A stretch of DNA of 64,000 bases from Pseudovirgaria hyperparasitica (GCA_010093815.1 ML996569.1); one strand, 5' to 3'. Counted from the stretch's first letter, positions 6,645 through 55,237 are shown. Numbers and translations: made by a program. Notes: generated from the letters alone by a model not told the origin.

Positions 6645-8222
6645 CTAGCGTGCGTAGCGGGATGCATCCAAACCACCTCCGAGAACACCGCTTCTTCCTG
6701 TAGGCGCCTTCTGGGAGGCGCGGGCCTGGGATACAAGAGCTAAGGCAATGTCAGTGTTGACGAGCAATATTAAGGAGCATAGGGTGATACTGGGACCCTC
6801 ACTGAGGAGCTTACATGCTTTAGCAATTTTCTCCTCGATACCAACACTCATCTGCTTGTGGACTTTCGCGAGCGCAATGCGATAGTGTGCCTGGATTTGG
6901 CACGGCACTTTCTCGAAGGGGCAATTGGTGAGACGGCAATCGATATGGTAGTTGACACCATGGGTTAGCATCTCCTTGATGTCTGCAGTGTCTCGAACGA
7001 TACCAAACCAGTCATTGACGTGCTCAGCGCTCAGAGGAACAACTTCCGAGGCAGTAGCGTCCAATGCCTTGTTGAGCGCCTCAATTTCAGCGATAGGTTT
7101 CTTTACAGGGGCAAGCGGAGCTGGAGCATTAGGGTCCTTGGGGTCAATCGGTTCTAGCTTCTCATACCTCACACCTTCGTCCTTGGAGATACTGCTGTTG
7201 GTTACGGCGGGCAGCGGCTTATCCGTGACGCCGTCAGAGACATAACGATCGACACCATAAGCGATAGGCCGGGCGCCATGGTCGGGAAAATTCGTCTGAA
7301 CTGTCTTGCGGTCGGAGGCGTAAGGATGTGACATACGAGTCGTTGGGCGAGCGGTAGGATCAACAACGTAGCTGATGGAAGCACTGGGAGGTATCGACTT
7401 ACGGCTGCTAGACGAAGCACTGAGAGGCATTGACTTGCGGCTGCTAGACGAAGCACCGCCGCGCGAAGATGGGTCAGACGGTCCCTTGGGACGGTGAGGT
7501 AAAGCTGCTTGGTGAGCGGAGTGGAGCGAAGGTCCAGATTTAGTTTTCAGCATCTCCATGGCTCGCTCAGGGTTGAACAATTTAGGTCCTTGAGGTGTCT
7601 GAGTGGCCACTGTGCTAGATGCAGTGCGCGCAGGTTGATGCACTGGTGAAGCACGTGCCAGATCAATGTTTCTATGATGGACTGGAGGACCTTTGTTCGT
7701 ATTCGATGCGATGGGACGAGAAGCATTCGGCGGTAAACTGCGAGGCTCAGTGTAGCCATCACGTCTGATGCGATGCAACTGACCACCATGGATGACACCA
7801 AGCGACTCAGCTGTATGATCACGTTCCTCATCAGCTGGGACGTACGCTATCACAAGATCAGCAACTGAAATGAGGAGAAGACAATGACAAATGCGTACTG
7901 TTCCACTCCGTAACTCCCTGGTTTACGGCTCGATCGACTCTCTTCGCACGCCCACCTCGAATTGCACTAGAGGCACGACCTACACACTGGGTCAGTCAAG
8001 GCAGAGTCAGTTTGCTCCGTTGATGCTCACTAGGAACGAATCCAACGGAAGGGTCGTTCACGTAGCGGTGATCGTAGTCTCTGGCGATTGTATTTTCCCG
8101 GCGATCGGCACAAAGGTCGTCCTAAAAGCTCAAGTCAACAACGTGTTCTGCTCATGTCTTCTTGCAGAGATAGCTACATATTCAAAGCGATCGTCTCCTT
8201 CGGTTGAGTTAGGGTTGGCCAT
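6645..8222 (-). CDS. Orphan low-complexity protein (multi-exon, Ser/Pro-rich middle, Cys/His-containing C-terminal part)
   Basis: 402-codon ORF 6645..7853 can be extended upstream through three plausible GT-AG introns to an ATG at 8222 (MANPNSTEGDDRFEY...). No family recognised. Confidence 0.5.
7381..7455 (-). repeat. In-frame 36-bp tandem duplication inside the orphan gene
   Basis: Encodes ASSSSRKSMPLS / ASSSSRKSIPPS; cggctgctagacgaagcac is repeated on the + strand at 36-nt spacing. Confidence 0.8.
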
Positions 8223-10804
8223 CTCCCCGGCGCACCCTGTAGTGCTGGTGGCAGTTGTAGCTGCAAAAGAAGGTGAGGTAACTGGTAAAGGGAAGGTAAC
8301 TTGCAGTGGCAGGTGAAAACAATGAACAGAGTCACAAGATTGGAGCCTAATCCGGGGGGCGGAGCTAATGTTTCTCCGAGTCGGTGAAAGTGAGCCAGCT
8401 TGGATAGCACATTAATAAAGGTGTGTTGAAATGAGACAGCCGAAGCAAAACAAATGAGGTGAAGTGAATTAAGAAGCGCGCCTGTATCTCTGCACAACAA
8501 CGCAAATGTGAGCTTTGCCAATACCAATCACTCAGATTGCATAGAGACAAAGGATGGTAGAATGGCCCATCTTTGGCTGGTAGGTGTGAAGTAGTAAGGT
8601 CGTTGATGCGCTGCTGCCTTCCCTGTCTGCTCCTCTCGCGCTCCATTCCGTGCTCCTTTTTGTGTAGGTCTATGAGTGTTGTAATTTTCATATCATAAAT
8701 TCCCTGGTGCTCTGTACCATACGCTACATTCGTGTCTAGCTGGTCATATCCCTTGTATCAGCAATGTTTTGCAGCATGAATCAGTTGCTGGGACAGCCAG
8801 TTATCGTCGTGTAACCGGTTCCATAGGACAGATAGCAATATACCTTGTGCACCTATGACAGAAACCTTAAAAATCTTTCTCTTCAAGAACTTCCCTGCAA
8901 TGCATTGCAGTAGGCGACTGGACAAGTCCATGATTTCATTGCCGACTAGCAGGTTGTTGTGTATGTGACCAAGCTCTTGAGAGCGATCTCATAGGCATCA
9001 CGCTACAGTAAGAGGGACTACTCACTTCATCAGATGACTATTTTGCGACAACCTTGAGTTGGTTGTGACTTGTTGGAATGAGTAGTGTCCCATGTTGAGG
9101 TTTGGTAGGTAGCCCCCAGTTGTTGCCAGTAGATGAATCATGATTAGTCAGCGAAGGAATATTCATTTTCCGTGCTGACTTCTACTTTCCACTAGCCCAA
9201 TGCTAGGTAGATCAATGTCTTTCTCTGTCTCCATATAATGAGCACTTGTCTTTTAGGCGTAGCGATCGAGGGATCATCTATTAGCTCCTCCAAGTCACTC
9301 CTCAATCGCGTGCTAATGCTTACATTCGCAGATGACTGGAGCTAAGTTGCGGACTTGATATTTCCTCTCATTGCTGATATTCACAGGAGCCGTGCTCGAT
9401 GAGAAGATCACAAGAGCTCTGCTACACATTGCAGTATTTGAATTCACGCAGGACTCCAGCATTAGCGTAAATAGTCTGTCTTGGCTCAAAAGGTGTCATA
9501 TCGATTTTAGGCACTCTCTATGCTTTTCTCTCCAAAGCCTCCCCAGCGTCACTCCAAATATTCATCTTGTACAATCAAGCTCACATCTTCCTCGTTGGTG
9601 CTCTAGGCGACTAGACTTGTCCGTGGTCGATGTGAATGATCGGTACGACGCTGTGCCCCTAGGATGAGTGTGTTTCCGATGGACCATCATCTCCGTGTAC
9701 TAGAGGTCCGAAATCTGGATGATCCAAGGGAAGGAAGCGTGCGCTTGCTATTTTTGATAGCCGATAAATGCGTGTATCCTCAGTGTGAAGGATGGCTTTA
9801 AGGATAACGGAAGTGTGTGTCTTGTCTGAGTGTTAATCGACTTTACAGGACCCCTGACTAGGGATTCGTAACTATTCGTGTAGTATGTTACCCGATTGAA
9901 ACTTTTCAGCTTGTGAAATAAGCCCCAAGGAATGACTTTCCGCAGTATCCATATACTTGTGGGCAAACATGGGTATTCTTCGATGTTGGTATTCATACAA
10001 CTCCTCAGAGCTACGTTCACGAAGTCGTGATCCACTACAATGAATGCCATCTTGATCTGGGCGCATTTCCAAAGAAAAGAGGAGCTTAGCTTCACTCATG
10101 ACTGTGTCGCTTTCCTACCTCTACCACCCCAGCGTGCGCTGGAAAGTTCCGCCAGGTCTATCCGAGCTTTTTTCCAATTCTTTTTGTTATTGATAACGAT
10201 ACTCATGCCACCACAAGGTTCGCAAGTTCGCTGAGCTGACTATCGGATATGTTTTATTGTACTATTTTTAACACGAAATAAAAGAACCGTCTTCTACCGA
10301 CGCCAAAACGAGGGGCATCAAAACGGCTGGTGATGATAGTAATTATCGCCAGCGGTGTCAAAACTTGTTTGATCGCGCATTTACAGGGTTTGCCAGATGG
10401 AACGTAGGCAGGAAATTTTTCCTTGATGCTGAAAGGCTGGTAGACCATGTGAACGACATACACTTTTCGTTGGCGCTCTAAGAGAGGATGTGAGTGTATC
10501 AAGGACATATCAGTCGCTGGTGTCATAATGTTCTGATATGGTAAGGTACTGCAGAGTTAGACATTACTACATCGGTAGGGAAGTCGACTTCGGAGTGAGC
10601 ATTATGGATCCTCTCGAAGCTCTGACTGCCGCAAGACTTTATCAATGCCATATGTTTGTAGATCAGAGTAGTACGAAAGATGTTAAGTTCGAAAACTGTT
10701 TATATGTGGCGCTTGCATAATCGAAACTCGTGAACCGAGTGACTTGATACGCCGTGGAGCAAAGTAGCTCCAGTACATAACTTGACCAAAAATATAGTGA
10801 TTCC

Positions 10805-18071: not shown

Positions 18072-18563
18072 GATGATTTGAAACTCGAATTTGGCTAATG
18101 ATATCACAACGCTTTTGCTCAGATGTGCGACAAGTTAACTTTATATCTGACAGGCTAATAGTGCTTCATTCCAACAATAATTTGTGAACCTCAATGGGTT
18201 TTGAGCCATCGTTACAAATGAGCATTGCTAAAGCGGGCTACTAAGGCTCTACCTATTCCATCACTGCCGCCCGCTGCTACACAAGGGTAACCTTGCAATC
18301 CAAAATGTTGGGTGATCAGCGATTGCAATGGAATCCCTTGCAGCATCATGGCGTAGTGAAAAACTAATATGTGTTTAGCGGCGTCGAGGTGTCGTTTTGT
18401 TCACATTCCCGATGCGACAGCCTTGAGTGTCTTCCAGCTTCCTGCTCAAACCCGTGCCCCTTCATAGGTTCCCTCACTTCAGTCTTTCTAATTTATCTAC
18501 TCCACCGAGCGACAAGAAGTCGTTATCAGATAGAATTCTAGGTGAAATCTTGTTGCAGGTAAG

Positions 18564-21500
18564 ATGACCGAGAAGCTCCAAGAAGACATCGAATTGTATG
18601 CGAGATATCGAGGGAGATTCCACCGCGACGAAGCTTGCCACGTCGGGTTTCGCGATTTGACTGTCAATGGCCGCAATTACAACTCAGACTACCAGCGGAC
18701 TTGTGGCAACTACCCATTTTCTATACTCCAGCAGCTTCTATACCGGAGACCTAGCATTATTCCGATCCTAAGACAGTTTGATGGGCTTATCGAACCAGGA
18801 GAGACTGTACTCGTACTTGGTCGACCGGGAAGCGGTTGCTCTACTTTTCTCAAAACACTGTCCGGTCAACATGACGGTCTCACCATCACGAGTGACAGCA
18901 AAATCAGATACAACGGTACCCATTCCATTTAATGATAAAGTACATTGCTACCGCACTAATGAAGTAAATAGGCCTTGAGAATCAGGAGCGTCACGGAGAA
19001 TTAGTATACCACGCCGAAACCGATCACCATTTCCCGGAACTGACAGTCCATGACACTCTCAAGTATGCTGCTTCCGCGAAGGTCCCCTTATACGATTCGG
19101 CCAATTCCTGTCGGAGCGAAAGATTGCAGTCTGTCACTGACTGTATTCTGAAGTTGTTCAGCCTTGAGAGTAGTGCTCGGACTAGAGTCGGAGATGACCT
19201 GATTCGTGGGGTCAGCGGCGGTGAAAGACAACGCATCAGCATATCAGAAGCATATGTATGCAATGGCAAGGTACACTGCTGGGATCAGAGTACTCGAGGC
19301 CTAGACAGTGCCACAGCTTTGAATATTGTGAAGCTTATCAAGGAGTCTTCCCGCTCATTCGGAACTGTAAGCCTGATGAGCTTATACCAAGCGTCTCAAG
19401 ACATGTACGAGGTATTTGTTACCAACCCAAGAACTGCATTGACTCATATACTTACTTACCAGACATTTGATAAAGTCTGCCTCCTCTACGAAGGAAGACA
19501 GATATACTTTGGGGCAGCCAGTGAGGCCAAGGAATATTTCACTAGCCTTGGATTTGTCTGTGAGGAACGAATGACTACTGCAGACTTTTTGACATCCTTA
19601 ACAAATCCTGAGGAGCACGTAGTCACGGAAGGTTTTCACAAAAAGGTTCCACGCTCGGCTGAAGATTTTGAAGTAATTTGGAAGGCAAGTACAAAAAGGA
19701 AAGAGCTAATTGCTCAGATTGAAAAGATGGTCTCTGTCGAAGTACGCGGTGAAATGGAATCTCAAGATCAAGATGCTCACCTGGTGCAAAAGAAAAGGTA
19801 ATATCCTTATATCGTATATTGAGCTTCAACTCATAACGTTTCAGGCCCAGCTCATACGTCCTGCCCTTCCACTACCAAGTTGCGCTCTGCAACGCGAGGG
19901 CACTTCAGAGGATGAAGAGCAACATGGCAGTGCCGGTTTCAGGCATACTCGCACAAGGCGTGCTTGGAATCCTTACAGGTAGTATGTTCTATAATCTGCA
20001 CTCGGACACGGCAAGTTTTTACAGTCGAGGGGCTCTTGTATTCTTTGCATCGCTACTCAACGCAACCGCGAGTGGATTTGAGGTATTAGAGCTATCTTTT
20101 ATACCACCGCTGCCTGTGATTGACGTGCTCACTCCATGTATAGGTTGGGACTATATGGGCACAGCGCCCTATTGTCGAGAAGCATCATCGCTATGCACTC
20201 TATCATCCTTGTACCGAGGCTATCGCGGCCATGATATGCGATATCCCAGCCAAAATTCTCTCATCCTTACTCCTCAACTTTGCTGTATATTTCATGAGCA
20301 ACCTCCGAAGAACCCCGGGCGCTTTCTTTACATACCTTGTCTTCGCATTTTCTCTCCATCTTACCATGTCGATGTTCTACCGTATGGTGGGCTATCTTTC
20401 ACGCACCTTAGCACATTCTATGGCTCCTGTGTCTGTTTGGATACTTAATTGGATAATATCCACAGGTTTCATTGTTCCTACGCGTGAGATGAGGCCCTGG
20501 GTGCGATGGATCGGATACATCAATCCGATTGCCTATGCGTTCGAAAGCATGATGTTGAATGAAGTAGGTTCGCTTCTTGTGGCCGTAGGAGGGCGCTAAT
20601 CTACGACACAGTTTGACGGCCAGAGGTTTCCATGTACCACTATCATTCCAAAAGGGCCGCCTTATGATAGTATGGAGGAACGAATGATGACGTGCTCTAC
20701 TGTCGGGTCAATTCCCGGAGAGACGTATGTTGAAGGCAATCGTTATGTCTCGGAGAGCTTTGGATTTGAGCGAAGCCACCTCTGGAGGAATTTGGGCATT
20801 CTTTGGGCCTTTTTGATAGTGTTCATGATTGTGTTGATTCTCGGAGCTGAATTTGCATCTGCAGAGAAGCCACGCGGAGACATACTGATATTTAGACGTC
20901 CAAGCAGTTCGAAGAGTCCAATCACCACGGGGCACAAGACCGTGGCGAAAGAGGCACCAGCAAGGCTGAGTGGTATGGCGAATATCCAGAGCCATAATTC
21001 TGTTCTCCACTGGAACGATTTATGCTACGACATCAAGTCTGGGTCTGCCATGAAACGTATCCTAGACCAAGTAGAGGGTTGGGTGAGACCGGGTCAGCTC
21101 ACTGTGCTCATGGGTGCGACAGGAGCTGGTAAGACAACTTTGCTAGACGTGCTGGCCAATCGCACTCGACTTGGAGTCATCTCAGGAAACATAGCCGTTG
21201 ATGGGAGGCCACGTCTACCGGCGTTTCAACGTCAGACTGGCTACGTACAGCAGACAGACATTCATATACCAGAACTGACTGTGAGAGAGTCTCTTATGTT
21301 TAGTGCATCACTTCGACAGCCTGCCGATATCATGGCAGAAGACAAAGCTGCCTATGTCGAGCAGGTGATGGAAACCCTCGAGATGAAGTCTTACGCAGAC
21401 GCCGTAGTTGGTATACCTGGGAATGGTATTGCTCTCTTCATCACGCTTTTATACATACTTACAAAAACCAGGTCTAAACATCGAACAACGCCGACGACTT

Positions 21501-23042
21501 TCAATTGCGACGGAACTGGCGGCGAAGCCAGCTTTGTTGTTATTTCTTGACGAGCCGACATCGGGACTCGACAGCGAGACAGCTTGGCTGATTTGTAGAT
21601 TGCTTCGCAAACTGGCAGATGGGGGTCAAGCTATTCTGTGTACTATCCACCAACCGTCGTCGCACATCTTCAACACATTCGACAGACTCCTGCTTCTTGA
21701 TCGCGGCGGACGGTCTATTTATTTCGGCGATATTGGCCACCACGGAGCTATCATGAAGAACTATTTCACTTCGCATGGTGCTCGTGACTTTACAGAGCAC
21801 GAAAATCCGGCGGAGTGGCTTCTGGAGATGGGTTCGTCCTCAAAATCCGACGACACAATTGATTGGGTCAGTGTCTGGAGGAATTCGCAACAGCGCCGGG
21901 ATGTACAAGAACAGATAACAAAGCTCTCGGAGAGGCAGTCGCCTGCGGTGTCTATATACGACTCGAGCGAATTTGCGGTGCGGTTTCCTACGCAATTATA
22001 TACCGTTCTCCTAAGGGCACTGCAACAGGACTGGCGCGTACCCTCCTATCTATACTCCAAGGTATTACTGAGCTTTGGAATGGTATGTGGTTTCCCTCCA
22101 CGTCCCAACTCAAGACGCTAACAATCTCGAGGCCTTTTCTATAGGAGTGTCATTTTGGGCAGCACCTTCCACCATCCAGGGCACACAAGGACAAGTGTTT
22201 GCCGTCTTCCTCCTCCTGACACTGTTCAGCAATATGATGCAGCTGTTGATATGGCGATTTGCATATAGCCGCGCAATCTTTGAAGCTCGTGAACGGCCAT
22301 CCAAAATTTTCTCATGGAAGACTTTTATGTGCTCAACCATGATTGCAGAGGTGCCATCTCAGACATTCATTGCGGTCGTTGTATATGTTTGTTTCTACTA
22401 CCCAGTAGGCATGTACCGCCACATGGGCTCAGCTGTGCGTGAGAGGAGCGGATTGATGTTTATGCTCATCTGGGCATATCTGATGTTCACGTCGTCTTTT
22501 GCTCACATGATGGCCATCATGATACCCGAGCCGGCGACGGCGATTAACATATCCCAGCTGCTCTACATGCTATGCCTCCTTTTCTGCGGGTAAGCACCTT
22601 GATATTCATCATTTTGGAGTTCGCTGACATTGCTGTCAGTGTTTTGGTACCTTCCAACAGCTTTCCGAGATTCTGGATCTTCATGTATCGGGTCACACCG
22701 ATCACGTACCTGGTCGAAGGTCTGTCAACGACCGGGCTTGGACGGAGAGCGATCGAATGTGCACGACAAGAAGTCCTCGTTCTCCAAGGTCCCACAAATG
22801 TCACTTGTGAGATCTATCTTGGACCTTATGTCTCCGCCAACGGGGGACGCATCTTAAATCCTGACAGCATGGGATCATGCAGATTTTGCCCCGTTGCAGA
22901 TACAGATAGCTTTCTTGGTGTGTTGACCATGTCGTATTCGCGAAGATGGCTTGACCTTGGCTTGATGTTTGTGTACATTGCTTTCAATGTATCGGCAGCA
23001 TTGGGCGTGTACTGGCTTATAAACAGGCGGCAGAGGCGTTAG
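18564..23042 (+). CDS. Full-length PDR-type ABCG transporter (NBD-TMD)2, multi-exon
   Basis: NBD1 GRPGSGCST, VSGGERQRISI, CWDQSTRGLDSATA; NBD2 GATGAGKTTLLD, LNIEQRRRLSIATELAAKP, FLDEPTSGLDS; PDR loops INPIAYAFESMMLNE and FPRFWIFMYRVTPITYLV. Confidence 0.93.
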
Positions 23043-23411
23043 CCGAAGACTGCGGCCCACCATGATGTCTACTCGATAATATGGGTAATTCCTAGTCATA
23101 TCCATGGTCAAGTTATATTAGGTAACAATATCAACACCCCACGTAATGTTATACATGCTCAAAACAGACGGCTAGTCTGTGCTGGCTCCGGACGAAGCTT
23201 TCGACGTAAGACTCATATGATCAAATGACTATGAAGGATGATACGAAAGAAATGAAGAAATACAGTGGCGGACCCTGGACCGAGGTGGAGAGCGGGATAG
23301 AGAGCTTTAAACAGAATCCAACCCCTGCAAGCTCGTCGGCTCGTCCCGCATGTCAGCCTTACGGGGATCTCTAGCCTGTTTCAGCATTTGGGGCGCCACT
23401 AGCGCGAAACA

Positions 23412-23439
23412 ACTTGCTCATTCGTGCTCAGTGGGCAAA
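23412..23439 (+). promoter_or_regulatory. Tandem TGCTCA (Mac1/CuRE-like) element upstream of the metalloreductase
   Basis: ACTTGCTCATTCGTGCTCA at 23412-23430, followed by TGGGCAAA (reverse TTTGCCCA) at 23432-23439; about 330 bp upstream of the ATG. Confidence 0.5.
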
Positions 23440-23755
23440 ACCTTCTCAGCCGACGCCGCAGATGGACCGTGATGGACCTCTCGACGTCTTCACATTATTA
23501 AAACCCTTTACATTCTGTACCTATACCACGTTTCCTCGCATATTCTCCGTCTGGTTATGTTCGTCGGGATCTAGGTAATAGCGATTCCACTAATGCACCT
23601 GGGCCCACGTTGTGCTCTCTTCGTCTTCGTCTTCTTTTCGTCCCTCTCTACTACCTTTGTCGTCACCTGAGATCGGCCACCACGCCAGAGCACTACGCGA
23701 CAGAATCACCACATCGCCCTTGACGACGCCGTCTAGGAGAGACGCGCATTTCAAG

Positions 23756-26247
23756 ATGGCCATGTCGAAGCTGGTCAGCGCGCTGCACGTTCTCGCACTG
23801 ATAACTGTACCGACGGCCTCCGCGAGTGGAATCATCGGCTTTGGTATCTCATTGTATCAGGACCTTTGCTGCCAATCATGCCACGACTCGCTTTCCAAAC
23901 TGTACCTCAACTGTACAACATTTCCAGAGGGCATGGATGCTGAATCGGCTTCGAGTATGTCCATGGACATGGGAATGGACATGTCTATGATGCCCGAGAC
24001 CAGCGAGGAATGCTACGCGTCGAATACTCCTTGGCTGCAAACTATGGCATACTGCATCCAGAAGAACTGCAATGCCGATGGATATCCCACCTCTAAGCAA
24101 GCAGAGTGTTTCAGCAAGCAAGCACTTGGCGGCGCAACAGAGCCGACCTTCCAGGACAGCTTGCCATCATCTGCCCCTACGGAAGAACTGGCGGCTGATG
24201 CGCTCTGGCTCAACTCGACCAGCCTTGTCAACGGAGACACATACTACTCGACCCATGGTACTCTGGGCGAATTCGCCAGATCGGAGTATATCCACACGCG
24301 ATACTCGTAGGTTTTGGATGCTATGCCTATCTGACGGAGACTAACTCGTTTGCAGTTTAATACTTTATCTGATTGTCATTGGCTTCATCCTAGCCTGTGG
24401 TCTCTTCGTCCAGACACAGCGAATTCTACCTGGATTTCAAAAACAGCTGCAGACGTCTACGCTATGGGCCAAATGTCAGCAAGCGGTCTTCCTACCCGCT
24501 CTGTTCAGAAGTCGACGCCTTGAACCTTTGCCAGCCAATGCTGGGTATGTTCCTGGTAGGGCTTTGACCATCTCAATTGCTGTATATGTCATCATCAACA
24601 TCATACTGTGCTCTGTGTCCTATCGCAGCTTTCAACCGAACATATATTTCCTGTCGAAAGGCTTCGAACTGTGCGAATACGTAGGAAACCGCACTGGAAC
24701 CATCAGCATAGTCAACATGAGTATAGCCATCTTGTTTGCGGGGCGCAACAACATTCTCATGACAATTACTGGCTGGAGTCAAACCACTTTCATGACTCTA
24801 CACCGCTGGACAGCACGCGTGGCCACGTTGCAAGCCGTTGTCCACTCCATTGTCTACACAATGGCTTACTGGGAGCAAGGGTACGAAGGCGCCTCTGCAT
24901 ACGCTGCAAAGGCTGCAGAGCCATTCTACGTAAGTTCAAACACAAGGCGTTCTGCAGAGTGATTCTAACATTATATGATAGTATTGGGGAATCATCGCGA
25001 CCATTGCAATGTGCTTGATCCTCCCATTCGCCCTCCTGGCATTCCGCATCAAGTTCTACGAGACATTCCTAGTTATCCACATTGCCCTGGTCATCCTCAC
25101 ATTAGCTGCAACATGGTACCACATTGTTCCCCACTTTGGTTACGTATATGGCTACCAGACCTGGCTGTACCTCTGCTTCGCTTTTTGGGTCTTCGACCGA
25201 GTGGCCAGAGTTGCGCGCGTTGGCTTCTACAGCCATCTTGGCAGCTCCAAGGCCATCGTTGAACGGGTCCCGGGATGCGACGTCATGCATGTCACGGTGT
25301 ATCCTCGCACTACCATAGGTTTCGGTGTTGGGCAACACACCTTTCTGTACTTTCCCTATATTGGCGTAGGGAAGTTCTGGGAAAGCCATCCTTTCAGTGT
25401 AGTTAGCTGGGGAAGGCAGCGACGATTGCAACCAAGTAATTCTAGCTCGGCGTCCTCCTCGGCGGAGAAGAGAACTGCCGACGACGAGATCAACGTTGTT
25501 GGTGCGAAGCATGGCTTGAGCACACATTCGCGAGCCATTACCAAGGACTCGTCCTCACCGCTCTTAGGCGAGATGGATGAACGGCCTTCGATATCATTCA
25601 TGATGCGGGCCCACACTGGCTTCACAAGAACCTTACTTCGAGATCTCTTCACCTCTGACACTCGGCCTGCAGAAATTGCAGTCTATACGGAAGGACCATA
25701 TGGGGGACACGGTGCGACCCTGCAGCCGCTCGTCAACGCGGACACCGTCATCTGTCTCGTTGGCGGTATTGGTATCACCAACATTCTCGGTTTGGTTCAG
25801 GAGTACACCAGCGGAAAGTTCACCGGTGGTGAGAGTCAGAGTAAGACACGGGGTCTGATGAAGAAAGCTAAGAGACTAGTGCTTCTCTGGTCTGCAAGGG
25901 AGATGGCCTTGATCGACTTCGTAAAGGATAGGTTCCTTTCATTCGACGTGGAGGTTGAAGGAATCGAGTGCGCGTTCTGGTGCACAGGAAACTCCAAGAA
26001 CACTGAGCAGGACTCGGATACTGAAAGCCAGAAGGCAAGCGGAGTCAAGACAGGACAATCCGCTGTCGCAACGAGAGGACGAATGATGATGGGAACGGAG
26101 CTAAGGTCTCACTTGGAAAAAGGCCAGCAGACAACTATTGTCGTATGCGGACCTAGCCAGATGACGGACGAAGCCACCAGAGAAGTGGTCGGCTGTATCA
26201 AGGAGGGTTATAGAGTGGACCTTGTTGAGGAGGCTTTCAGCTGGTAA
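23756..26247 (+). CDS. Ferric/cupric reductase (FRE family) with signal peptide and Cys-rich, Met-rich extracellular N-terminus (3 exons)
   Basis: Signal peptide; GIIGFGISLYQDLCCQSC; MSMDMGMDMSMMP; heme-ligand His in LHRWTAR...VVHS and YETFLVIHIAL...WYH; FAD motif WESHPFS; EGPYG; NADPH motif GGIGIT; C-terminal VCGP...EEAFSW. Confidence 0.93.
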
Positions 26248-26538
26248 TTGGCATATGAGCGTCTTGATATCCAACCATTCGATTCCATACCGCCTAGTTC
26301 AAATCCTTCCGAGCTGATGTACAAGCTGGATTACTGTGTCCTGCGAGCCAAGATAAGCAGAACCGTGATGTCCAGCACCGTTGATGTCCCAGCGCTCCAA
26401 GGTAATAATAGCACAATGCTATATACACTAGCACCACCGCCGTTCACCTTAAATAGCCCGTTTCCGCAAGCCACGTGCTACATATGCGTGGGGACCTTGT
26501 CCGCTAACCAGGATCGACTGCTACACCACGTTTCTGCT

Positions 26539-26557
26539 ACTTGCTCGAACATGCTCA
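26539..26557 (+). promoter_or_regulatory. Tandem TGCTCR (CuRE-like) element upstream of the opine dehydrogenase
   Basis: ACTTGCTCGAACATGCTCA; 15/19 identical to the 23412-23430 element, with the same 10-bp spacing. Confidence 0.5.
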
Positions 26558-26738
26558 TCTCCAGACGATGATCCCTCTCCGCTCGGCCGACCAACACGAA
26601 CACACTTGTTTTCTTGCCAGGATGCTGCAGATATATATGCAGAAGCAAACCCAAACAGACGATCTTCGCATACAAGCATATTCTCAACGACATAGCACCG
26701 TCTTACACATACATAGTCCTCGTTAGAACGACGCTATA

Positions 26739-27906
26739 ATGCTTCAACCGAGAGTTGCCATTGTCGGCGCAGGACCTGCTGGATATGGTATGTGACGCTC
26801 CTTGTTTCACCCAACATAAAATTGCTAAACATACCACAGCCCTCGCCGCGGACCTTCACGCCCATCACAACTCAGTCCTCATCTACTCACATCCCTCGCA
26901 CACCTCCCACACCGACGCCGTCATACGCAAAGGCGTCCTCCGCTCCAATGGTCTCATCGTCTCCGCCATCACTCCTCGCACGACGACCGACATGGCCGAC
27001 GTCGTGGCCTTCGCAAAGACCGTCGTCATCACAGTGCCGAGTACAGGCCAGGAAACCGTGTGGGAGGAACTACGCAGATTCGACCTGAGTGCGCACACCA
27101 TCGTCGCAGTACCAGGCAATCTGTTCGGCCTAGTAGTGCAGAGAGAACTGCGCGACGTCAAAGTCAGAGCCATCCTCGAGACAAATCTCTCCCCATACTC
27201 CTGTCGCATGAGCGAGGGCGCCCTCGTCGTCCTCGGCAAGAAAAGCAGCTTCCACATCGCCCGCCTCGACGATCCCCCTTCCCTCACAAACCCAATCCAC
27301 CACCCCCCAGACGATGACGCCGACGTGCGACTCCGCCTCACAGCCCTATTCCCCCTGCACCTGCACTGGTGCGCCAACATCGTCGAAGTCTGCCTCTCCA
27401 ACATCAACGGCGTCTTCCACCCGCTGATGGTGCTGCTGAACGCCGGCCGCATCGAGTCCACCTCCGGCGCCTTCTTCTTCTACCGCGACGGCCTCACACG
27501 CTCCGTCGCCAACGCCCTCGTCGCCGTCGACACCTGCCGCATCGCCGTCGGTGCAGCGCTCGGCATGTCTCTGCCCAGCGTCATCCAGGTCAGCAACGAG
27601 TGCTACGGACACACCTTCACCGACCTCGTGCAGCTGGCGCGTGAGAGCGAGCCGCATCGCGACTTGCGTGCGCCGCAGGGCGTCGAGAGTAGGAATATTG
27701 CTGAGGATGTGGGCGATTTGCTGGTTGCGTGGTATGCGCTTGCGCGGGTGCTGGGGGTGGAGTGTGCGCCGTTGTATGCGGTTATTGTGATGGCTGGTAT
27801 GTGTACTGGGGTGGATTATCTGGTTGAGGGTAGGGGGCTGGCGAGGTTGGGACTCGAGGGCGTGGGGAGGGAGGAGTTGATTGCGCGGTTTGGGGTGAGG
27901 CGGTGA
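26739..27906 (+). CDS. NAD(P)-dependent opine dehydrogenase (octopine/nopaline dehydrogenase family), 2 exons
   Basis: Exon 1 MLQPRVAIVGAGPAGY (Rossmann GxGxxG); intron 26788-26839; ETNLSPYSCR; C-domain SNINGVFHP (catalytic His), LLNAGRIE, FFFYRDG, AVD..R.AVG.ALG, RNIAEDV (catalytic Asp), GRGLARLGL. Confidence 0.88.
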
Positions 27907-28042
27907 TGGATGGAGGGTTGTTTAGGGAGCGGGTTGCATATGTACATACATACATTCATACATACATGTATATTCATAATCGTGTACACACCAGCTATAC
28001 ACACTAATTAGCTATACCACACCACACCACGCCCCTCCCCTC

Positions 28043-28849
28043 CTACTCCCCCTTCACCGCAACAACAACCAACAACTCCATCCCCATCCGAATCCACCCA
28101 TCCGCCTCCCTCTCCGCCTCCCACTCCACCCTCATCTCCTCCCTACACCTCTCCCTCAACTCCCCAGGCGGCACCCCACCATACGTCTGCCCCGAACTAC
28201 TCGTATCCAACCACTCCACCATCTCCCCGGGGCCCTCCCTCTCCACCACAATCCGATTAACCCACATCTCCCTCCCACCCGTAAACCCGCCCCCATCCAA
28301 CAACCCATTCATCTCCCCGCGCGTCAGAAAATGCGGGCCCCCAACCTCCTCAAACGCCGCATACGGCGCACGCGCAAGAACCCGCGCCTTGATCCGCTCA
28401 TGCGCAGCCTCGAAGTCGCCGCTTCCGCCGCTGACGCCCAGCCGCCCGCCCGGCTTCAGGACGCGGGCGAACTCGCGGATCGCGCGCGCCTGGTCGGCGA
28501 CCCAGTGGAGGGTGCTGTTGACGAAGACGATGTCGAAGGCGGCGTCGGGGAAGCGGGAGAGGTCTTCTGCGATGCCGACGTGGAAGGTTAGGAGGGGGTT
28601 GTGGGCGTGGGTTTGGGTGGCGAGGGCGATGCGGTCGGTGGAGGGGTCGATGCCGGTGACGTGGGCGGGCGGGCTGGTGAGGGTGGAGATGTGGGCGGCG
28701 AGGTTGCCTGGGCCGCAGCCGATGTCGAGGACGGTGGCGGCGGGCGGGATGGGCAGGTGGGAGAGGAGGAAGAGGGCGGCGTTGAACTGGGTGGTGTTGC
28801 GGGTTGTGTAGCCGGATGCGAGGGCTGGGGTGTCGTTGCGGGTTGTCAT
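28043..28849 (-). CDS. Class I SAM-dependent methyltransferase-fold enzyme (intronless)
   Basis: Motif I VLDIGCGPG; VTGIDPS; AEDL; FDIVFVNSTLHWV; RVLKPGGRL. 268 aa. Confidence 0.92.
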   Translation of the reverse strand: MTTRNDTPALASGYTTRNTTQFNAALFLLSHLPIPPAATVLDIGCGPGNLAAHISTLTSPPAHVTGIDPSTDRIALATQTHAHNPLLTFHVGIAEDLSRFPDAAFDIVFVNSTLHWVADQARAIREFARVLKPGGRLGVSGGSGDFEAAHERIKARVLARAPYAAFEEVGGPHFLTRGEMNGLLDGGGFTGGREMWVNRIVVEREGPGEMVEWLDTSSSGQTYGGVPPGELRERCREEMRVEWEAEREADGWIRMGMELLVVVAVKGE

Positions 28850-29050
28850 TTTTTTTGGGTTTGTCGGGGGGTTTTGTGTGTGCTGGGGGGAGGTGGATGT
28901 ATATGATTGTGTCGGGGGGATGGAAAATTGGGAAGTGAAATGTGTTTGTTTTGAAGGTGAGGAGAAATGTTGTACATGGGATGGACTGGAGCACGTGGGT
29001 ATTAGAGAGCTTTTGGCATGAGTGAGAATGTTTCAAGGGTATCGGTCAGA

Positions 29051-29069
29051 GGAGTAAGTTTGAGCAGGT
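29051..29069 (-). promoter_or_regulatory. Degenerate third copy of the tandem TGCTC element, upstream of the methyltransferase
   Basis: Minus strand reads ACCTGCTCAAACTTACTCC (14/19 identical to the 26539 element), about 200 bp upstream of the ATG at 28849. Confidence 0.4.
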
Positions 29070-29456
29070 TGTGTGACACACAAGGTCAGTTTAAGGGCGG
29101 GGGGTGGAGTGGGGCGTGTACCGTGGGCGCAAGGCGTCCGGACTGAGGTGGTGCTCAGGGGAGTGTAGTCCGACAATGGCTTGTTTGTTATGTTTTCCAG
29201 TGTATTATTTTCCCATGCCCCAACGTTGGATTTTCTTTCTCGTGCTTCCTATTGGCCAATTGTCTATTTACATGACTTCTGCAGATGTATGCGGCCAGGG
29301 GGAGCAGCCCGGGATGCGTGCATAGGCCCTTGCAGCCATCTCGGCCGAAAACGGAATCCCGGTTGTAATATGCTTATCCGGGATCGGCGAATGCTTATAT
29401 CTCCGACACGTCCCTGACATCGCATTTTCTTCGCTATATTGATTAGGTGACAAAGC

Positions 29457-31102
29457 ATGTATACAGATGCCCTCCTTCAGTCTCCAGCAGCAGTGCTCGG
29501 CATAACATCAGTGGCGCTTGTAAGAGCGTCTTCGTCTGCCTTATGCAGTGCTAACGGCGGCAGCTGATCGGATACATCCTTACGCAAGCGATACAACGTC
29601 GATTCTTCCACCCGTTCAGTCATGTACCAGGCCCGTGGCTCAATAGCATTTCAGAAATACCAGCTGCATTCCACCTCGTCAACGGAGAGCAGCATCTTTA
29701 CTATCGGTCTCTGCACGAGAAATATGGCCCTGTGGTTCGCGTCTCGCCTGACGAGCTGAGTTTTGTCAGCGTAGAGGCGCGGGACGAGATATATGGCCAC
29801 CGAGTATGACCATGTTCCATCGTCATACCAAGTCATGCACACTGACCTCTAATACAGAAGGCAGGTCTAATGGAGAAGAGTCCCATCTTTCTTGGCGCGG
29901 TGGGACAAGTCAACGGAGAGACCGGTGTGAGTCTTGCACTGAACGCAGAACACACCAGACAGCGTCGGGCAATAGGGTACATCTTCACAAACAGCGCCCT
30001 ACTCCAGCACGAGAGCATAGTACGGCGCCATATACACAAATGGATCAATGTACTGCGTGATGCGGCTAATGGAGCCCGCCCCCTCGACTTCTCTGACTGG
30101 TACACATACCTCGCCTTCGACATCATGGGCGACCTCTGCTTCGCCGAGCCCTTTGGCTGCCTCGACCAAGCCTCCGCAACATCCTGGTCCACATCCGTCA
30201 TCAAGGTCTTCGTCGCAGCAACCTGGACCCAAGCCATCCGCCGCATCACGGGCGTCGGCACCACGCTCGAGACAATCCTCACAAAGCTCCTCATCCCTCG
30301 CAGAGCAGCCGAATGGCGGCTCACGCACCTCGCAAACTCCAAGGAGAAAACCCTGCGTCGTCTCGCCGACCCAGACCGCGACCATCCGGACTTCACATAC
30401 CAAATCCTGCACAGCGAGTCGAAGAAAAGCCTCTCGCACACCGAAGTAATCCTTAACATGGGCCTTTTCATCAGCGCGGGCACAGACACCACGGCGACGG
30501 CATTGGCCGGCTGGACGTATTTCGTATGCACACATCCAGACGTGTACGCGCGCTTGACGGGTGAGATCAGAAGCGCGCTCGCCGATGAAACGGCGATCAT
30601 ATGGACGAATGTGCGCCATCTGCGCTATCTCGAAGCCACCATCAAAGAGGCACTCCGGCTATTCCCTCCCTCGGGCGCGAGTCAGCAGCGGATTGTGCCG
30701 GTAGGCGGAGCGGTGATCGACGGCTACCACATCCCCGCGGGGAAGACAGTCGCCGTATCGCCCTGGGCATCGACTCGTTCCTCTCTCAATTTCCACGAGC
30801 CAGACGCTTTTATGCCGGAGAGGTGGCTGGGCACACACGAGAGGTTTGCCAATGACCGACTTGCTGCGTCGGTGCCGTTTGGGAACGGGCCGAGGGTCTG
30901 CGTGGGCAAGAATTTGGCGTACATGGAGATGCAGCTTGTGGTGGCGCACCTGTTGTGGAATTTTGATATTGAGCTTGATAGGGGACTGTTTGTGGATCGG
31001 AATCGTGTCTGGGGGTTGGATGGCGTGTTGAAGCCGCCCAAGGTGTTTCATTCTACGATGAAGCCTGAGTTGTGGGTGGCTTTGAAGGATATACGGCGCT
31101 GA
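29457..31102 (+). CDS. Cytochrome P450, CYP65/Tri11-like type (3 exons)
   Basis: FFHPFSHVPGP; LHEKYGPVVRVSPDELSF; FDIMGDLCFAEPFGCL; I-helix AGTDTT; EALR; FMPERW; heme motif PFGNGPRVCVG. Confidence 0.93.
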
Positions 31103-31305: not shown

Positions 31306-33687
31306 TCAGTTGAGATAGCCCAGCGTGTCATCCTCGAGCAGCCCCATCATATACTGGTTTCCATTCCACCAGTCGCCAATACTGTTGTTCATCACGACGT
31401 TGCTGTCTACACTTGGGCCTCCTGCGAACCCCATGGTGTTCAAGTATGGATTTAGTGCGCTCCACGCTTGAGAACTAATGTTTACGGCCTGGTCTGGGGC
31501 CGATGATGGCGTGTTGGACTGGGAGTGACCCTCGACATATAGATTGGCGACTTGGTGTAAGGTTGAGCACAGTGCATGCATCTTTCGTGATCCTTCCGTA
31601 GTCTGGCCCATCGCAAGTGTTTGAACAAACTTCTCCATGCGCTGGAGGTCACCTGCATCTTGGGTGCTGAGAACATTCCCGAATAGGACGATGAAGGGCA
31701 CGAAGGGGGCTTGAAGGATGGTCCTGTGGCAAATGGATTTAGCTCATGCAAGAGTGATATCCGATCATTGAACATACCAGTGGATGTAAAGGGACCAGGA
31801 GTCTTCTCCAATGTCAACATAACTGTCAGCAGCCTTCTGGTGGAGTGCGAGTGCAGCTCTGGCATAGCCTAAGCAATCCGGACTCAGACCAGCATCACTG
31901 GAGCTTCGAGCAATCATGCAGCACACCACATTGACTACTACCTCGTCAGAGATACAAAGAAGCTTCACCGCACGTATGCCTGCAATTGTGTCGGGCAGGT
32001 TCAGACTCTCGTGGTGCTGATACAGCTGTGGAATCTTAGATTTAGCTCATCAATTTTGTCAGCGGAACTCACTTGAGGGATTTCCTCCCGTACTGTCTCA
32101 ATCTCATGCAGGAGTAACTTCGCATGGTTCTTTTGTACCTCTCTGCTTTGTTTGAGCGCAGCAGGACTGTACAATTGCTCGTATACCCGGCCTTGAACAC
32201 GGGCAGTACGAATCCATAAGCATACAACTTTGGTACTGTATTGAGCCACAGGCGAGCTGCCATAGTCTGGCAGGTCGACATCAATGTCATAATCCTGCAG
32301 AATCGCTGCTCTCCCAAACCGTAGCGAGATCGACCTGTCCATGACATAGATGTACCAGAAGATCTGTGCTTTGCGTCGCCTCTGCTGGTCAGTGTCATCT
32401 TCGGACATTCTATGCCAGCCCATTGAGAGCGCAGCACTAGCTGCGGCCGCTGTCAACTTCCAACTCATGGTCGGTCTACAGGTCTCGATGGCGTAACATG
32501 CTCCGAAGAGAAGAGCCGATATGAGATTCTCGTTTCCGGGAGACAGTACCTCGAGGTTGGACAGCGCGATCTCCAAGTTGTCTTTGCACAGAGAACTCTG
32601 TGGCCCCCGCTCAATATCGTAGCCCAGCCTCCCCCCAGAAGAGTCGCATCCGAGCCAGTAGAGATGACCGAAAACCAGTATTGCTGTTGACGTGGGATAG
32701 TTATCGAGGCAGAAAAAGACATCCTTACACAGTTCTGTAAGCTGGTCGATATCCAAGACGGCGAAGGGATCCAAGAAAGTAAGAGTCGGGGATACTAAAG
32801 TCGGACATGTCAGGCAGGTATCAGAAGCTTGTATGATGGCATAATTGTACTTTTGGCTTGCCGTAGTAGATTCAACACCACATCCGTCGGTGGCAATTTT
32901 AGTCGCCGATAGTCAAATCGAGAGTCGCCCCCTAGTCTCGCAGGTGGAACTGTACCCGGTGTGGGCTCATGACGGCTTGAGAGTTGTCGCAGATGTGCCA
33001 AGGCTGAAGACATGGCTGGGCTACTTGCAGCAAAGGGATCTTCTTGAACTGCTTTCTCGAGCAGGTCACGAGCATATGCAGAGTGAGCACGCATCGATGT
33101 TTCGCCTTCATAGGCCTGTCTCTCTTCTTTGGTGAGGTCATCAGCTGACAAAGGGGATGCATACGCGGCTCGGGATACGGCACGCGGAGACGTCTTGGGT
33201 ACTTGTGTCAAAGAAGAAGATGAAGATGGTGCAGGGTATCTGGTGTTCTCGCCAGAGTGGAAGACATGATCGAGGTCTGCTAGCCTCTCCTGGATGAAAT
33301 CGATTTTTCTCTCACTGCGCCTATCAGTCAACCCTGCTTGAGACACACAGGAGTCACCACCAACTATTCTTCAGTTACATGGAGTCGTTTTCGGGGAGCT
33401 TTGGGCTCGGGATTACTGGTTTTACATGGGATGTTCGACGCTTTACATGACGAACATGGTGATGCTTTGTCGCAGCGTACCTGAGTAGTTATATGGTTAA
33501 TGATGACTCCTCGCTTCACGAGGAGACGCCCACCTTTCTTGCTCTGCAGGCATTGCACTATAGCTGATATGTCAGCATATATGTGTCACCATGGTAGCAC
33601 AGGCATGAAGCCAAAAACACTTACCGCTCGTTTGAAAAATGGCGACGGGCTTGTAGCGACCCGATTGCCCGCGTCTTGTGCTGGCAT
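31306..33687 (-). CDS. Zn(II)2Cys6 transcription factor with fungal-specific middle homology region (multi-exon)
   Basis: Spliced N-terminus KRA|CNACRARK|VRCDKASPCSSCKASNIPC; middle region MGWHR...RRRKAQIFWYIYVMDRSISLRFGRAAILQDYDID. Confidence 0.9.
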
Positions 33688-55092: not shown

Positions 55093-55237
55093 GAGAGTCA
55101 TCGGGTTTGAGAGTCAGGTTTGAGAGAGCGTCTGAGAGTCAAGTGTTGAGAACGGTTTTGTGAGAGTCAGTGTTGGGGGGGTCCGGGCTTGAGCAGGTTT
55201 GGAGAGTCATGGCTGGAATGGAATCGGCTAAGAGTCA
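55093..55237. repeat. Cluster of six (G/A)AGAGTCA motifs
   Basis: GAGAGTCA at 55093, 55109, 55134, 55162 and 55202; AAGAGTCA at 55230. Confidence 0.75.

Follow-up and report, generated by a model that had tools for sequence, protein, structure and literature searches.

A 64,000-nucleotide stretch of the Pseudovirgaria hyperparasitica genome (GCA_010093815.1 ML996569.1), referred to here in its full length as the window, contains a cluster of a ferric/cupric reductase gene (FRE), an opine dehydrogenase gene (ODH), a methyltransferase gene and a cytochrome P450 gene, and the promoters of the first three share a short element with two half-sites 10 bp apart. The element exists, is non-random, keeps its sequence, strand and promoter class among homologous clusters, and matches the published sites of the copper-fist activator Mac1. 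We interpret the three copies as Mac1 (MacA/GRISEA)-type upstream activating sites, composed of paired GCTC half-sites one helical turn (10 bp) apart, and on the evidence described below we assign this reading a probability of about 0.7. The conservation of the motif in many fungi and its agreement with the Mac1 site make it probable that copper shortage switches the cluster on.

The paired element in the window

An initial annotation had proposed that a tandem TGCTC element is shared by the FRE, ODH and methyltransferase promoters and that a single GTGCTCA lies upstream of the P450 gene. A string check of the window finds all three 19-mers and the GTGCTCA where they had been placed (Table 1), and the distances of the pairs from their start codons bear out the further claim of sense-strand positions 180–330 bp upstream. 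All three promoters carry two half-sites 10 bp apart, and the methyltransferase pair is located in the divergent intergenic region between the methyltransferase and P450 genes. The half-sites read CTTGCTCA, CGTGCTCA, CTTGCTCG, CATGCTCA and CCTGCTCA, and fit the scheme of T-rich bases followed by a GCTC(A/G) core.

The pattern TGCTCN5TGCTC has two matches on both strands of the 64 kb, compared to a mean of 0.21 in 100 dinucleotide shuffles, and both copies are the FRE and ODH promoter sites, belonging to adjacent genes of the cluster. The tandem is thus commoner than background in the window, with one of the 100 shuffles also reaching two matches. When the pattern is generalised post hoc to ACYTGCTCN5TRCTC, it has three matches versus 0.00 in 100 shuffles. 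The caution that TGCTCA hexamers also occur singly was well placed, with 49 copies in the window, 29 on the plus strand and 20 on the minus strand. The flanks of the three 19-mers have nothing in common outside the element, and the sites are therefore not copies of a dispersed repeat. Support from the window alone for a shared element is suggestive, not compelling; the decisive support comes from the orthologous promoters rather than from window statistics.

The motif recovered from orthologous promoters

A single scan of metagenome contigs with alignment of ODH homologues provided 23 orthologous loci, and tblastn with the window proteins shows that the order FRE (+), ODH (+), an MFS gene (−) where present, methyltransferase (−) and P450 (+) is kept in them wherever the contig reaches. 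Class assignment rests on the best named ODH match, by which there are Leotiomycetes-like loci (Phialocephala 95%, Cadophora 91%, Halenospora 80%), Sordariomycetes-like loci (Chaetomiaceae 72–85%, with the truncated L022 at 62%, and Coniochaeta 78%) and Dothideomycetes-like loci (Lentithecium 74–78%), together with two further, more divergent forms. With seven near-duplicates removed (L002, L004, L010, L018, L020, L021 and L022), 16 loci and the window make up 17 non-redundant sources with 38 promoters.

In a screen of all 8-mers across these 38 promoters the top words all overlap one motif, with ACTTGCTC present in 17 promoters (0.92 expected) and CTTGCTCA in 16, and the best unrelated 8-mer, TATCTGAA, is found in only five of the 38 and lacks a conserved context. 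An expectation-maximization model trained without the window, on 35 promoters, converges from unrelated random seeds on AGAGCAAACTTGCTCA, and the resulting position weight matrix (PWM) can be written AAAC(T)TGCTCA(A/C), with the consensus AAACTTGCTCA. The extended consensus AAAC(T/C)TGCTCA(A/C) is the dominant de novo motif of the FRE, ODH and methyltransferase promoters in three Pezizomycotina classes. Motif search thereby recovers the element de novo, and when this PWM is applied to the window it finds the sites of the initial annotation at rank 2 (FRE, 23410–23423, plus strand, 13.8 bits), rank 3 (methyltransferase, 29058–29071, minus strand, 13.6 bits) and rank 6 (ODH, 26547–26560, plus strand, 11.5 bits). 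Four of the six best window matches are sense-strand sites in these three promoters, a target of 1,888 of the 128,000 strand positions (binomial P = 6.9e-7).

The motif is also concentrated in promoters among the sources as a whole. AAC.TGCTCA has 24 matches in 21,420 nt of promoter sense strand, distributed among 22 of the 38 promoters, and 11 matches in the 567,884 nt elsewhere, so that promoters are 58-fold denser; at least five of these 11 are still intergenic in or beside the cluster, three being upstream of the MFS gene, one upstream of a Ctr gene and one in a FRE–ODH spacer. Orientation is strictly maintained, with 34 sense and no antisense sites of at least 12 bits in the orthologous promoters, and the strong sites lie 167–642 bp from the start codons.

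Pair architecture in the three promoter classes

The description of the element as a shared tandem holds only in part. An exact direct tandem is kept in the methyltransferase promoters, where the orthologues read (A/T)A(A/T)(C/T)NTGCTCAAA and 8 of 11 scored sites are followed at +10 by N[GA]CTC, as in TGTGCTCAAAAGAGCTC. The FRE orthologues instead read GAAACTTGCTCAAT, with one strong site (the best sense site scores at least 13.8 bits in eight of nine promoters) that is often accompanied by a weak NNCTC at +10; for FRE and methyltransferase orthologues together, a second N[GA]CTC core at +10 is present after 11 of 19 sites. In the ODH orthologues the motif forms an island, AAATNGAGCAAACTTGCTCACC, amid otherwise divergent sequence, and is arranged as an inverted pair, GAGCAAACTTGCTCA, whose two GCTC cores are also 10 bp apart. 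A site is present in 12 of the 17 ODH promoters (window included), and an inverted left half in 11, all of them at orthologous loci.

Alignment of the window ODH promoter with these 11 (alignment A2) places its second half-site with their conserved AAACTTGCTCACC, and its first half-site, which is direct, replaces the inverted GAGCA half of the orthologues in the same 10-bp register. It follows from this exchange of a direct for an inverted half that the constant feature is a pair of cores one helical turn apart, and not a direct repeat. The strict pattern ..[TC]TGCTC-N5-TGCTC. matches no FRE, ODH or methyltransferase promoter scanned in the orthologous loci, although it missed the methyltransferase tandem of L008, which has a G before the first core. 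Conservation of the exact tandem as such was dropped for this reason, and was replaced by the extended site with a core at +10.

Outside the window the strict pattern has one match in L001 (the same site is found in its duplicate L002) and one in L023. The L001/L002 match is an exact tandem, GTTTGCTCTATTCTGCTCA, at position 8257 on the minus strand, within a 2.4-kb spacer between FRE and ODH; the sole open reading frame (ORF) of at least 110 amino acids in the spacer (8097–8546, minus strand) has no Pfam match, and the ODH promoter of these loci is without the usual site.

The single GTGCTCA upstream of the P450 gene is present as described but is neither conserved nor high-scoring. In the P450 sense the PWM reaches at best 2.4 bits in the window intergenic region, and exceeds 10 bits in only one of 12 orthologous intergenic regions, and the heptamer is unlikely to function as a site by itself.

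Relationship to known Mac1 sites

In yeast, Mac1 recognises a copper-response element (CuRE) with the degenerate form TTTGC(T/G)C(A/G), and its targets include the CTR1, CTR3, FRE1 and FRE7 promoters. The Mac1/CuRE-like character given to the element in the initial annotation agrees with three published sites: the yeast/Candida form TTTGCTCA, as quoted in the available text of a Fusarium oxysporum study (PMC11563359), the F. oxysporum site DHNTGCTCANNN from the same study, and the Aspergillus fumigatus MacA site TGTGCTCA. The elements described here resemble yeast CuREs in their GCTC(A) core and the T-rich position immediately 5′ of it, in the presence of more than one copy per promoter, and in having a metalloreductase target; moreover, TTTGCTCA is found exactly in the methyltransferase promoter of L006 and the ODH promoter of L012. 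They differ from yeast CuREs in that the commonest form is CTTGCTCA following a conserved AAA, that the cores are at a fixed 10-bp distance, and that the targets include biosynthetic genes (ODH and methyltransferase) besides the reductase. A literature search for yeast CuREs arranged as repeats found nothing relevant.

The sections of the F. oxysporum study available to us report that chromatin immunoprecipitation sequencing (ChIP-seq) of Mac1 defines DHNTGCTCANNN, with the core TGCTCA and several sites per promoter, that binding occurs only under copper limitation, and that the targets include fre and ctr genes and the isocyanide biosynthetic cluster crm (PMC11563359). The core is identical to ours, the flank ACT found here fits the DHN of the F. 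oxysporum site, and both systems have several sites per promoter. However, Table 1 of that paper lists no opine dehydrogenase among the Mac1 targets, and the same sections report no fixed site spacing. The main text of the paper contains neither the word methyltransferase nor the word P450, and in 12 of the 17 supplementary files TGCTCA appears only in a figure legend.

In A. fumigatus, MacA recognises TGTGCTCA in the promoters of ctrA1, ctrA2 and ctrC, according to the available part of a review (PMC6514546). Exact copies of this sequence are found in four methyltransferase promoters (L001, L003, L005 and L012) at −179 to −289, and the second half-site in the window FRE promoter is CGTGCTCA. 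Opine dehydrogenase is stated to have no homologue in the Aspergilli in the accessible text of a Trichoderma harzianum study (PMC12855858), and the cluster therefore lies outside the described A. fumigatus regulon. A Podospora grisea transcriptome paper contains nothing on this cluster.

Two general traits of CuREs are also present. Multiple elements per promoter, several of which are required at Histoplasma CTR3 according to the portion of the report available (PMC9040751), are seen as the two half-sites in each of the three window promoters. A position upstream of copper-acquisition genes is seen in the strong sense sites of eight of the nine FRE promoters, and in PWM sites upstream of a Ctr copper-transporter gene (PF04145, E ~1e-24) that is situated directly past the P450 gene in the related Helotiales-like loci L003 (6888–7705, minus strand) and L006 (16266–17140, minus strand). 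This neighbour links the cluster physically to copper uptake, as does pca2 in T. harzianum.

Homologous clusters in Pseudogymnoascus destructans and T. harzianum

Copper regulation of a homologous cluster is experimental in the bat pathogen P. destructans. The available portions of two papers (PMC12113139, PMC13208438) describe a Copper-Responsive gene Cluster (CRC; VC83_01834–01838) of a reductase, an MFS transporter, an opine dehydrogenase, an S-adenosylmethionine (SAM)-using enzyme and a P450, which is up with the copper chelator bathocuproine disulfonate (BCS; copper withholding) and down with copper overload, at both the transcript and protein levels; among the proteins the SAM enzyme is more than 70-fold up and the opine dehydrogenase 20-fold up. 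It shares with the window cluster the reductase, opine dehydrogenase, SAM-using enzyme and P450, and differs in having the MFS transporter. The word "motif" is in neither paper and the proteome paper makes no mention of Mac1; in the accessible text of PMC12113139, which holds both opine dehydrogenase and Mac1, the latter figures as general background.

The second homologue is the Plant Communication Associated (PCA) cluster of T. harzianum, with the same gene families. In the available text of its description (PMC12855858) it consists of pca1 (reductase), pca2 (Ctr), pca3 (transferase), pca4 (opine dehydrogenase), pca5 (MFS), pca6 (methyltransferase) and pca7 (P450), is plant-induced, and has a "novel" palindromic "PCA motif", YGHGSAADHTTSCDCR, to which no factor is assigned; its authors tie the cluster to plant recognition, not to copper. 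An unlinked copper transporter (30.8-fold) and ferric reductase (21.2-fold) rise along with it; plant-induced genes outside the cluster include Triha1_83588 (Ctr) and Triha1_76871 (reductase). Positions 2–16 of the PCA motif match GAGCAAACTTGCTCA exactly, and in the 589 kb of our sources they have nine matches, all in ODH promoters (9 of 17 sources). The full 16-mer with Y as its first base has no match in the 589 kb, and the palindrome, with or without that base, has none in the window, where there are direct repeats instead.

The kind of element, the copper regulation of a homologous cluster and an unassigned version of the motif are thus already known. Our searches of an open-access library and bioRxiv found no paper that identifies the motif as a paired Mac1-type CuRE common to the promoters of this cluster across fungi, and none that combines "PCA cluster" with Mac1, or octopine with both Mac1 and copper. 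The present comparison joins three strands that no paper found in these searches had linked, namely the Mac1 sites of model fungi, a bat-pathogen copper cluster published without a cis-element, and a Trichoderma palindrome presented as novel.

A proposed model for copper-dependent expression

We infer Mac1 as the factor that binds these sites, possibly as a dimer, and copper as the signal that regulates the module in P. hyperparasitica. When copper is scarce, Mac1 would lose its bound Cu(I) and bind the paired sites, and may occupy the two half-sites as a dimer. The bound activator would switch on FRE, ODH and the methyltransferase gene together, and the P450 gene could be co-activated through the divergent promoter that it shares with the methyltransferase gene. 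When copper is replete, Mac1 would leave the DNA and the module would fall silent.

Should the element prove to be a Mac1 site, the cluster would belong directly to the copper-starvation regulon in many ascomycetes. The idea that it makes or handles a copper-scavenging small molecule would be strengthened, and there would be a simple, testable reason for the Trichoderma cluster firing near roots. A further product is the pattern AAAC(T/C)TGCTCA with a second core at +10, with which unannotated fungal genomes can be searched more sharply for the copper regulon. On a broader proposal we are evenly divided: that the paired CuRE, direct or inverted with 10-bp spacing, marks a widespread Pezizomycotina regulon for small-molecule copper acquisition (FRE, ODH, MFS, methyltransferase and P450) under Mac1 control, that the T. 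harzianum PCA motif and the P. destructans CRC belong to one regulatory unit, that the thousand-fold "plant recognition" response of Trichoderma is copper limitation, and that the swap of inverted and direct halves in the ODH register reflects a Mac1 dimer tolerating turnover of half-site orientation.

Alternative explanations

Several observations weigh against assigning the element to Mac1, or against giving the counts their full face value. The exact direct tandem is missing from orthologous FRE and ODH promoters, and in five of the 17 ODH promoters the stretch examined, which was at most 700 bp long and no more than 179 bp in L017, lacks a good site. Some of the loci are related, so that the promoter counts are not independent events; by best ODH match they correspond to about 8–9 lineages. 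PWM matches are no more numerous across the window than in Markov simulations (4 versus 3.1 at 12 bits), and the best of them, AAACCTGCTCAAGC at 55187–55200 on the minus strand (15.8 bits), lies in a gene-poor stretch without a recognised gene. The conserved AAAC 5′ flank is outside the published Mac1 consensuses compared here, and the strict sense orientation is not needed by a classical, orientation-independent upstream activating sequence.

These last two features, neither of them known for Mac1, are among the reasons for considering a real, conserved cis-element that is read by another factor, either a second copper-fist protein of the AceA/CufA type or a dimeric factor on the palindrome GAGCAA-N2-TTGCTC, with a plant cue, nitrogen or iron as the possible signal. 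The available text of the Histoplasma report describes TCTGCTC[A/G] in copper-regulated genes that are Mac1-independent, with the related factor AceI suggested (PMC9040751), the A. fumigatus review in its accessible part counts three copper-fist factors with an unclear role for CufA (PMC6514546), and the T. harzianum cluster, which has the same motif, came to notice as plant-induced, its authors obtaining no JASPAR match for the PCA motif in the text at hand (PMC12855858). However, the response of the P. destructans cluster, up on copper withholding and down on overload, is the pattern of Mac1, the co-rise of the unlinked copper transporter and ferric reductase in T. harzianum is as in copper limitation, and TGCTCA is the Mac1 core defined by ChIP-seq (PMC11563359, in the sections noted above). 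We therefore consider another factor unlikely, although it deserves to be taken seriously. With regard to an iron signal, an SreA/GATA iron-responsive promoter is not supported, as the SreA-type sequence ATCWGATAA has only one match in the 38 promoters.

It is very improbable that the sites are bound by a pathway-specific regulator of the cluster itself, for which the window offers a candidate in the Fungal_trans gene located 900 bp beyond the P450 gene; L006 also has a Fungal_trans gene, an unrelated one, about 5 kb beyond its P450. The window transcription factor has no homologue at E <= 1e-8 by tblastn in any of the 23 loci, which keep the motif, and the same is true of the window ABC genes; no PWM match above 8 bits is found upstream of the transcription factor gene; and the P. 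destructans and T. harzianum clusters are described, in the available portions of their papers, without a transcription factor gene, the T. harzianum authors stating that there is none among the plant-regulated genes (PMC12855858). The lack of a regulator conserved with the cluster points to one encoded elsewhere in the genome. Finally, chance recurrence of short GC-containing words in three promoters could draw on the abundance of TGCTCA in the window, the equality of window-wide PWM counts with simulations, and the one shuffle that also yielded two tandem matches, but we give it almost no weight: the extended motif is kept in the same three promoter classes and on the same strand in loci of three fungal classes (by best ODH match), and a model built without the window picks out the claimed sites. 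The comparative data thus exclude chance, and the Mac1-type reading remains the one that we prefer.

Gene models and neighbouring features

A protein named for Pseudovirgaria hyperparasitica, a species placed in the Dothideomycetes, order Acrospermales, matches the window ODH protein with 100% identity. Coordinates of the elements and genes are provided in Table 1. The genes flanking the module encode a PDR-type ABC transporter, the Fungal_trans-domain protein, an MDR-type ABC transporter and a carboxylesterase. Two public runs (X1 and X2, of unrecorded kind) have contigs in which each of the five predicted introns is skipped with GT..AG ends, those of FRE and ODH in both runs, and this fixes the gene models. 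The motif-bearing stretches at approximately 23274–23537 and 29028–29301 have little or no cover by these spliced-run contigs, whose ends lie near 23538/23568, 28863/28928 and 29451; such contigs cannot show transcript starts, and the uncovered part is not evidence. The additional PWM match at 23151–23164 falls in a stretch that is covered by a spliced-run contig ending at 23236–23269.

Table 1. Positions of the elements and of the genes in and around the cluster, numbered from the first nucleotide of the window
Feature	Position	Strand	Details
CuRE-like direct pair ACTTGCTCATTCGTGCTCA, FRE promoter	23412–23430	+	Half-sites ACTTGCTCA / TCGTGCTCA, GCTC cores 10 bp apart; −327 to −345 from ATG 23757
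Direct pair ACTTGCTCGAACATGCTCA, ODH promoter	26539–26557	+	Half-sites ACTTGCTCG / ACATGCTCA; −182 to −200 from ATG 26739
Pair ACCTGCTCAAACTTACTCC, methyltransferase promoter	29069–29051	−	Half-sites ACCTGCTCA / ACTTACTCC (second degenerate); −202 to −220 from ATG 28849
Single GTGCTCA upstream of P450	29151–29157	+	−300 to −306
Extra single PWM match ATACATGCTCAAAA	23151–23164	+	11.6 bits, rank 5; ~600 bp upstream of FRE ATG, just past the PDR-type ABC gene
PDR-type ABC transporter	18546–23040	+	Upstream of FRE
Ferric/cupric reductase (FRE)	23757–26247	+	Pfam Ferric_reduct, FAD_binding_8, NAD_binding_6; introns 24307–24355, 24930–24981
Opine (octopine/nopaline) dehydrogenase family (ODH)	26739–27906	+	Pfam Octopine_DH 1.5e-40; intron ~26787–26838
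Class I SAM-dependent methyltransferase	28043–28849	−	Pfam Methyltransf_11/25/31; place and orientation kept in orthologous loci
Cytochrome P450	29457–31102	+	Pfam p450 7.4e-65; introns 29520–29563, 29804–29857; syntenic in orthologous loci
Transcription factor gene, Fungal_trans domain (Zn-cluster)	32001–33370	−	Pfam; 900 bp past P450

An MFS gene is located between ODH and the methyltransferase gene in 11 non-redundant loci (L001, L007–L009, L011–L013, L015, L017, L019 and L023). It is absent from the window, where ODH and the methyltransferase gene are convergent with their ends 137 bp apart (27906–28043), and where ABC transporter genes flank the module on both sides instead. A motif-model match of at least 9 bits is present in eight of the 11 MFS upstream regions (L001, L007, L009, L011, L013, L015, L017 and L019), taken from the MFS 5′ end to the methyltransferase 3′ end, and the MFS transporter is thus probably part of the same regulon; in each of these eight regions the best match runs antisense to the MFS gene.

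A few minor features of the window can be added. The stretch around the match at 55187–55200 (approximately 53.7–56.7 kb) has a strong GC skew, and downstream of it there is no ORF of a recognisable family. One X1 contig, and no X2 contig, has an extra T in the T-run beside the methyltransferase start codon (28848), which may reflect either a difference in homopolymer length or an error of assembly. The PDR-type ABC gene is scattered over many short ORFs in different frames and may have many introns or be degraded; its 3′ end (23000–23269) is reached by spliced-run contigs.

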